DNA of 35,222 nucleotides from a virus (Duplodnaviria > Heunggongvirae > Uroviricota > Caudoviricetes), in IMG/VR virus record IMGVR_UViG_2541047123_000042, positions 1 through 35,222 of that record; one strand, 5' to 3'. Numbering within the stretch: the stretch's first letter is position 1; each line of letters starts with the position of its first letter. This document shows positions 15,001 to 18,000 of the stretch, piece by piece. Position numbers: made by a program.

Positions 15001-18000
15001 CGGCTTTTTATACTAATTTGAGCGAAACAAAAAGATAAAAAGTTGTTTTTCGGTAAGCGTACAGCGAGGGCCGTATTGACGGGGATGTGTTATTCAGCTG
15101 GCAGTGCTATGCGCCACGGAAGCAGTTCGCTGACCCGGTTGACCGGCCAGTCTGCTATGACGCCAAGCACATGGCGAAGGTAGCTTTCTGGATCCACGTC
15201 ATTCAGTTTGCACGTCCCGATCAGGCTGTACAGTAGCGCTCCCCGCTCACCACCATGATCAGAGCCGAAGAACAGGAAGTTTTTACGACCCAGACTGACC
15301 GCCCGCAGGGCATTTTCAGCGATGTTGTTGTCGATTTCCACCCAGCCATCGTTCGCATAGTACGTCAGTGCCGGCCACTGGTTAAGTGCGTACGCGAACG
15401 CCTTCGCCAACTCTGAGTGTCGCGACAGGGTCTTCATCTTTTCACGCAACCAGCTTTCCAGGGATTTCAACAACGGTTTCGTTTTTCGCTGACGTTCAGC
15501 AAGCCGCTGCTCTGCCGGCATTCCCCTTATATCCGCCTCTATGGCGTACAACTGACCGATCTGCTCCAGGGCTTCTTCCGTCAGTGCTGACGGGATGCGG
15601 ACGTGCACATCGTGGATCTTTCGGCGGGCATGAGCCCAGCAGGCAGCTTCCGTTATCCCACCATTGCGATACAGCTCGTTGAACCCGGCGTACGCATCCG
15701 CTTGCAGCACACCGCTGAAGCAGGCAAGATGAGTCTGCGGATGGATGCCTTTTCTGTCCGGGCTGTAAGCGAACCACACTGCAGGTGCCAACGCTGACCC
15801 TGCATTGCGGTCATCACGAACATACGCCCACAACCGCCCGGTCTTCGTCTTCTTATTACCCGGCAGCAGTACCTGGACCGGGGTATCATCGGCATGGAGT
15901 TTGCCGTCAGTCATGACATAGCCATGAAGCGCCTCTTCCAGCGGAGACAGCAGCCGGCAGCATGCATCCACCCAGCCCGACAGCAGTGAACGCCTCAGCT
16001 CCACACCTTGCCGGCCGTATATTTCTGACTGGCGATACAGCGGGGTGTGCTCTGCATACTTCGAGGTCAGCACGCGGGCCAGCAGCCCCGGTCCGGCGAT
16101 ACCCCGCTCGATAGGCCGCGAAGGTGCAGGTGCCTGCACGATGGCATCGCACTGAGTACAGGCATGTTTTTCCCGTACCGTCCGGATAACCCGGAAGGCG
16201 CTACGCATCAACTCCAGCTGTTCGGCGGTATCCTCGCCCAGATAGCTCAGTGAACCGCCGCAGTTCGGGCAGCACGGCGCCGCAGGCAACAGTCGCTTTT
16301 CGTCACGGGGTAGTGATTCAGGGAACGGCTTACGGGTGCGGGTCTGACGCAACGGACGCTGTACTGCCGGGTCATACACCCTACCAGTCAGCGTATCGCT
16401 CTCTTTCTGAAGCCGGTTCAGATCGGCTTCCATTTGTGCGATACGGCGGGAGACTTTTTCGGAACGACTGCCGAAGTTCATCCGGCGGAGTTTATCCAGC
16501 TGCGCCTGCAGATGGTCTATTTCGCGCTCCCGGTTGCTCAGCTTTTCCTGCAGGGCGTGGATCAGCGCTTCCTGTTCGGCCAGGCGCTGTTTCAGCAGGA
16601 AGATGTCGTCAGAAGAGATGTCGTTCATAAGCCCGTATTTTACCGGGCTTATTCTGTGACAACCAGGATAAAGAGATTTACAGCATGGTCAGGGAGGTCA
16701 GCAGCCGCTTAGGCTGTCGCCAGTCGATACCTTCCAGCAGCATCGCCAGCTGCGCCTGCGTAAGGAACACTTTGCCATCACGGGCTGACGGCCAGGCGAA
16801 GCGCCCACGCTCCAGCCGTTTGGTCAGGAGGCACAGTCCGTCACCGGTGGACCACAGCAGTTTAACCTGACTGCCGCTGCGGCCCCGGAAAATGAAAACA
16901 TGGCCGGACATGGGATCGTCTTTCAGCGCCGTTTGTACTTTCGCAGCCAGGCCGTTGAAGCCATTTCTCATATCGGTGATACCGGCAACCAGCCAAATTT
17001 TGGTCCCGGAAGGTAACGGGATCATCGCTTCAGTTCCTGTATCAGCAGAGTCAGGAGCTTTTCGCTGACATTGCCATTGAAGCGGAGCGTCCCGTGCCGG
17101 AACGTTACCTCACAGCTGATACTGAGGGTTTCCGGGTCCTCTGCGAGCGATTCTGGCTGTTCGGCAGCTGCATCGAGAGTCACAGGAAGTAGCTGGGGGC
17201 TCTCTGAAGAAGGTAATAGCAGCTTTCCCTCGCGCCATTGTTGTCGCCATTTGAACAACAGATTGGCGTTAATGCCATTTTCAAGAGCAAGTTTTGAGAT
17301 GGATATCCCGGGTTCACAGGAGGCAGCAACGAGCTGCTGTTTAAATTCGGGAGGATAATTAGGGCAGCCTTTTCGCCTGCCGGGAGTCACATTTTTCTGC
17401 ATATCTGATACTTTGGTTCCCACTACTTATTTGGTGGACACCACTTTGTCTAATTCGTCAGATTCTGACCAGACGGTTCAGGCTGTACGCTTACGTTTTT
17501 CGTGTCTTTAAGTGATACCAGATGGTATTGCGCTAAATGTACCAATGGGTATACCAAGAGCACTAAAAACAAAGGGGCAACCACTTTGTAACCCCTTGAT
17601 TATTTGCAGAAGCGCAGAAAATCGAACTCTGGAACCCTTTCGGGGCATCCTTTTTCAAGAATGAAGAAAAAAATAACTAAAAAATCAAGTTGTTAGGAAG
17701 TTATTCATGGCTAGTGTACCAACTCTTTTCTGGGCTAATAGCTATGATTTGTTTGTATTATTTGTCTCTGTCTCTATTATTTTTGACATCCATGCGACTT
17801 CTGATATTGATAACCTCAGTTGTGGAGTTCTGTCTGCGCTTCCGGGAGGACGCATATCAAAACTACAGGATCTTCTGTTAAACACTGTAAAGCCATCTAC
17901 ATTGCATGTTGTTGAGTCTAAGATACAATTTTTAGTAGATGATTTATCTGCTATAGGCCTAGATATTTCAGGTTGATGCCAAGTGTGTCCTGAAAAAATA

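Follow-up and report, generated by a model that had tools for sequence, protein, structure and literature searches.

Transposition of IS66-family elements relies on DDE chemistry catalysed by TnpC and on an 8-bp staggered cut in the target. In the description of the family (Han et al. 2001, J Bacteriol; ISfinder), the three-ORF elements of the IS66/IS679 type are characterized by a tnpA-tnpB-tnpC organization, an ATGA overlap, a DDE-type TnpC with a zinc finger and a leucine zipper, GTAAGCG ends and an 8-bp target duplication. One such element, ISEc8, is annotated in the O157:H7 strain Sakai as repeat_region 1807305..1809746 ("ISEc8 Family: IS66") within prophage Sp9 (ECs_1818-1820). Asadulghani et al. 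reported that Sakai Sp9 spontaneously excises, circularises via a 28-bp core and gets packaged (PMC2669165). In phage lambda, the P and P' arms, which derive from the phage, hold every accessory and arm-type site for recombination, and from the bacterial side comes only the B' core-type site that adjoins the overlap (PMC4880445).

The window analysed here, a stretch of 35,222 nucleotides from an IMG/VR virus record (IMGVR_UViG_2541047123_000042), contains the same locus as Sakai Sp9, with the same 2442-bp element boundaries, the same flanks and the same duplication. Across 3242 bp (400-bp flanks included), the two sequences differ at only two nucleotides, positions 16113 and 17265. The element is therefore already known, annotated in O157:H7 reference genomes at these exact boundaries. 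It occupies positions 15053..17494 of the window as a complete, 2442-bp ISEc8 of the IS66 family, composed as follows.

15045..15052, no strand: left copy of the target-site duplication, GTTTTTCG, found as a single copy in empty-site genomes
15053..15074, plus strand: ISEc8 terminal inverted repeat, tnpC-proximal (IRR by usual convention), 22 nt, 82% complementary, with the same end in three other copies
15090..16628, minus strand: tnpC, intact DDE transposase of 512 aa, assigned by Pfam domains and annotated as ISEc8 family transposase WP_000998048.1
16678..17025, minus strand: tnpB, intact IS66 Orf2-type accessory protein of 115 aa, PF05717 (TnpB_IS66), E 1e-38
17022..17402, minus strand: tnpA, helix-turn-helix (HTH) accessory protein, HTH_Tnp_1 (PF01527)
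17473..17494, plus strand: ISEc8 terminal inverted repeat, tnpA-proximal (IRL), assigned by inverted-repeat match, with the same end in other copies
17495..17502, no strand: right copy of the target-site duplication, GTTTTTCG, directly abutting the element end

The ends of the element form a 22-nt imperfect inverted repeat (18/22 complementary), of which the first 13 nt, starting GTAAGCGTACAGC, are perfect, and the interior is filled by the three minus-strand ORFs. TnpC matches DDE_Tnp_IS66 (PF03050) over its full length (1-283/284, E 2.1e-106) and additionally contains the zf-IS66, LZ_Tnp_IS66 and IS66_C domains (PF13005, PF13007, PF13817). The tnpA product comprises 126 aa from the annotated ATG, with the open frame reaching a GTG at 17423 (133 aa). 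The two accessory genes precede tnpC and are translationally coupled, the tnpA stop and the tnpB start sharing the ATGA at 17022-17025. None of the three genes carries a pseudogene flag in RefSeq. A three-ORF IS66-family element has four structural hallmarks, and the segment shows each of them. Comparison with copies annotated as ISEc8 gives 2442/2442 or 2441/2442 identical positions, and full-length matches at 100% extend to thousands of E. coli copies with this annotation. The placement of the boundaries was checked on three other ISEc8 copies, two at O157:H7 chromosomal sites and one on an O157 plasmid, which have identical end bases and are each flanked by their own perfect 8-bp duplication (GAGAAAAG, AGATTTCA and GATTACGC). 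No second copy or fragment of ISEc8 was found in the window by self-BLAST. The initial annotation had described a complete IS66-family element with a perfect 8-bp target-site duplication and intact tnpA, tnpB and tnpC, and the ends, the domains and the duplication bear out that description in full.

Insight into the mode of insertion comes from genomes that lack the element. Following a check proposed in the initial annotation, 15053..17502 was deleted in silico and the joined 800-bp flanks were compared with 5426 complete E. coli genomes. Non-contiguous flanks in relatives devoid of the IS had been named as the contrary outcome; the flanks instead proved contiguous, occurring in one piece in 248 complete genomes, with 100% identity in O157 strains 493/89 and LSU61 and 99.9% in EHEC of serotypes O145:H28, O26, O103 and O111. 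The exact 80-nt empty junction is found in 493/89, where GTTTTTCG occurs once. The contiguity of these flanks in the 248 genomes without the IS is the mark of simple transposition. It could be supposed instead that the 8-bp repeat is coincidental and that the IS came with adjacent DNA through recombination, and the AT-rich, low-complexity character of the repeat, though nothing beyond it, would suit such an origin. The probability of this scenario is vanishingly small, given that 248 genomes have the exact empty site, in which GTTTTTCG occurs once, that the other ISEc8 copies adhere to the same 8-bp rule, and that the chance of an 8/8 match at a fixed position under the local base composition is about 2e-5. 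Simple transposition also accords with the ancestry of the target. The bio-side att-lambda flank next to ybhB-bioA is found in all 5426 E. coli genomes, and the sequences left and right of the IS align collinearly with it, the target GTTTTTCG corresponding to GTTTTTAA in the att-lambda flank of K-12. This collinearity constitutes a second, independent proof that the two flanks belong together.

The occupied configuration (IS with 400-bp flanks) is present in 292 genomes, and an 80-nt left-junction probe matches 289 complete genomes, in which every strain named by serotype is O157:H7. The junction-positive strains include Sakai, EDL933, EC4115, 86-24/NADC 5570, SS52, FRIK804 and other FRIK strains. 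The perfect duplication and intact genes had been taken to indicate a recent insertion, a reading that does not survive the sharing of one junction by 289 genomes, with all named ones O157:H7, and the presence of strain-to-strain SNPs within the copy. Dated by the names under which the strains are recorded, the insertion is older than the diversification of strains and is fixed in typical O157:H7. At 16113, the window has A, whereas Sakai has G at the same locus, as do the three other ISEc8 copies; the change is synonymous, lies in a Pro codon of tnpC and is the only difference in tnpC between the window and those three copies. At 17265, the window has G and Sakai has T. In strain TR01, the tnpA at this locus has a RefSeq protein accession different from that of the other three copies.

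The age of this insertion is a separate matter from the activity of the element. A count of IS copies, also suggested in the initial annotation, gives 10-17 matching places per O157 chromosome. Sakai and FRIK804 have been reported to carry nine ISEc8 copies each, of which eight sites are shared and one is not (PMC7430833), and a de novo stx2a::ISEc8 insertion has been described in strain 9000 (PMC6776261). Variable copy number and these published insertions support the conclusion that ISEc8 is still active in the O157 lineage. The window copy itself is probably transposition-competent, a prediction made because its ORFs and ends are intact and its only change relative to the other copies is synonymous.

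Annotated relatives show that the locus belongs to prophage Sp9/CP-933P, which is integrated in ompW, and forms its right end. In order, the genes run from tail fibre genes through an nleG pseudogene, nleA, an integrase pseudogene, nleH1-2, nleF and an IS256/IS1414 remnant to ISEc8, and continues with espO1-2, nleG, espM1, IS630 and IS3 remnants and the ompW 3' fragment. The element sits in non-coding target DNA and interrupts no CDS; nleF ends about 930 bp before it, and on the other side the 3' end of espO1-2 is about 240 bp away. This arrangement bears on a possible regulatory role, in which ISEc8 promoters or read-out would alter the flanking effectors, either antisense to nleF or through an effect on espO1-2. 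The tnp genes are indeed transcribed toward nleF, convergent with it, and the insertion has reached fixation throughout the pathogenic clade. Such a role is nevertheless very unlikely: about 930 bp, including the IS256 remnant, separate the IS from nleF, the promoter side of espO1-2 is untouched by an element situated beyond its 3' end, and clonal descent explains the fixation equally well.

Beyond the ompW fragment, positions 23439-35222 hold a second lambdoid prophage with int (23610-24740), xis, an 814-aa exonuclease-type ORF, dicB and cI/cro-like genes. This second prophage at ompW matches strain TR01, which likewise has one after the fragment, whereas Sakai has none; in Sakai and 493/89, yciE directly follows. 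A second prophage past the ompW fragment implies that the source of the window is an O157:H7 strain in which two prophages lie in tandem at ompW. At the opposite end of the window, the tail genes (1-6800) give no megablast match before about 5431 in the compared stretches of Sakai, TR01 and 493/89; positions 5431-6719 are about 91% identical to those stretches, and identity from 6801 on is 99.1-99.8%. This pattern indicates a mosaic replacement of the Sp9 tail region in the window strain.

The DNA into which ISEc8 inserted has a history of its own, as a lambda-type attachment site that is now divided by the element into the following parts.

14806..15016, plus strand: fossil lambda-type attR, P arm and core GCTTTTTATACTAA, 80.6% identical to lambda 27529-27742, E 2e-46
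15017..15052, plus strand: B' followed by the beginning of the bio-side host-flank relic, the DNA targeted by the IS, assigned by att-lambda flank homology
17503..17535, plus strand: bio-side att-lambda flank relic, continued past the IS, with 17495-17533 matching the flank at 87%

The P arm retains 80.6% identity to lambda attP over 214 nt (window 14806-15020), with the ACAGGTCACTAATA and AGTGAC motifs kept. The core GCTTTTTATACTAA at 15003-15016 has lost one nucleotide from the T run of the 15-bp lambda core GCTTTTTTATACTAA and is no longer intact. The host flank in the relic extends for about 67 nt, with an 8-bp deletion inside, and homology then stops. The fossil attR is conserved in about 540 EHEC genomes. 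The distance between element and att-like core, which had been put at 29 bp, holds, with the core-like 14-mer at 15003-15016 lying 28 nt from the target duplication and 36 nt from the first IS base. The att-like core is a genuine one, and the attR (POB') to which it belongs is a fossil. GTDB species representatives were scanned for a native att-lambda flank that resembles the relic more closely than the E. coli one does. The scan returned five hits and no donor host, using a pattern that demanded conserved blocks and that divergent relatives may escape. Three of the hits are titled E. coli or Shigella, one is Escherichia sp. E1V33 and one is a MAG labelled Bacillota; all five flanks are E. coli-like in having AATAC instead of CGTGT and in lacking the 8-bp deletion.

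The 35-kb window, which does not include the left 35 kb of Sp9, contains no partner lambda core in direct orientation. One candidate excision partner, GCTTTTTTATACAGA at 23371-23385 on the minus strand, matches the core at 13/15 positions but is on the opposite strand and was rejected as implausible. This sequence, in which the first 12 core bases are exact, sits just left of the ompW 3' fragment marking the Sp9 end, and it could be a chance match or part of the ompW-prophage att region.

Given the proximity of the IS to an attachment core, the initial annotation held that the insertion would block precise excision at the attR-like site. A minimal attB spans about 21-25 bp. The idea that the IS damages attR, so that precise excision is prevented and the prophage or island stays locked in place, draws on the true position of the IS: the core that lies 28 bp away is a genuine one of lambda type and has a lambda-like P arm. 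Yet the core was already defective, one T short, and is without a direct-orientation partner in the window, and no working cognate integrase is present there either, since the lambda-like int in the vicinity is a pseudogene and the attP attached to it differs in its core. The bacterial-side needs of the reaction end at the B' core-type site (PMC4880445), whereas the IS lies 28-36 bp beyond the core. The working att sites of Sp9 are at ompW, and the IS-bearing Sp9 of Sakai is reported to excise and circularise (PMC2669165). Finally, strains with the empty site have both the degraded relic and the int pseudogene, from which it follows that any immobility predates the IS. Damage to a functional attR is accordingly extremely improbable. 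The reading of the element as a block is not supported: the relic was already dead, the IS is located beyond B', Sp9 has its att sites at ompW, and the IS has no bearing on prophage excision.

Instead, we hold with high confidence that ISEc8 transposed a single time into non-coding relic DNA of the Sp9 effector island, and that the copy has been inherited vertically with an effect that is most likely neutral. In such a sequence of events, a staggered cut in the target would have been filled in to generate the 8-bp duplication GTTTTTCG. The insertion would have occurred after the split of the lineage of sorbitol-fermenting O157 (493/89) and LSU61 and before typical O157:H7 diversified, and would have been passed on vertically since that single event. 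Situated inside a dead lambda-type attR, it interrupts no gene and no functional recombination site.

The attR is one of three attachment-site fossils within 6.5 kb of the effector island, the others being an attP-int pseudogene region and half of a serT gene. Positions 11126-12412 form a second lambda-like attachment region, of attP type and 68.5% identical to lambda 27528-28814, which sits between nleA and a tail-fibre C-terminal fragment. In its attP-type site, which spans 11126 to about 11400, arms resembling lambda P and P' surround a different core (CCTCCTTCTGACATGG...), and the adjoining lambda-like int (11412-12406) is a truncated, frameshifted pseudogene. The region was considered as the source of the site matching the 15003-15016 core and was ruled out by the difference between the two cores. 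On the minus strand at 17562-17660 lies the 3' half of tRNA-Ser serT, from the acceptor end through the anticodon loop, together with the downstream terminator hairpin (79% identity to the yccA-serT region, E 4e-17). ARAGORN and Rfam call no tRNA or RNA family in 14000-18600, where the serT-like stretch represents the 3' half only. This fragment is probably the att relic of an element that integrated at serT. Three such fossils fit an island enlarged by taking up prophage ends again and again.

The arrangement of P arm, core and host flank in the attR relic suggests a past aberrant excision of the lambda-bio type. A broader history can be proposed tentatively, although it is somewhat more likely to be wrong than right. 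The nleH-nleF cassette may once have resided on a lambda-att phage that had acquired host flank by aberrant excision of the lambda-bio type, and the island may have grown via serial capture of prophage right ends, with ISEc8 as a single-event marker of the passage from the 493/89 and LSU61 lineages to typical O157:H7. In practical terms, the insertion is a possible presence/absence marker that separates typical O157:H7 from sorbitol-fermenting O157, LSU61 and non-O157 EHEC with the same ompW prophage. In addition, the ISEc8 copy could supply a portable patch of homology at which IS-mediated rearrangements take place. It offers no explanation for why the prophage or the effector island is stable.

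Compared with known systems, the relic finds its nearest likeness in the attR of lambda-bio transducing phages (e.g. DN1, MF374379), with which it shares the order of P arm, core, B' and contiguous bio-side flank. It departs from lambda attR in its identity of about 80%, in a core one T short, in the 8-bp deletion of the flank and in the end of homology at about 67 nt. It also differs in location, inside a prophage at ompW rather than at gal-bio, and in being without a cognate int/xis. For the insertion itself, the likeness to the IS66/IS679 three-ORF elements extends to the tnpA-tnpB-tnpC organization, the ATGA overlap, the zinc-finger and leucine-zipper DDE TnpC, the GTAAGCG ends and the 8-bp duplication; with nothing notable that differs, the ISEc8 copy of the window is a standard IS66-family member.
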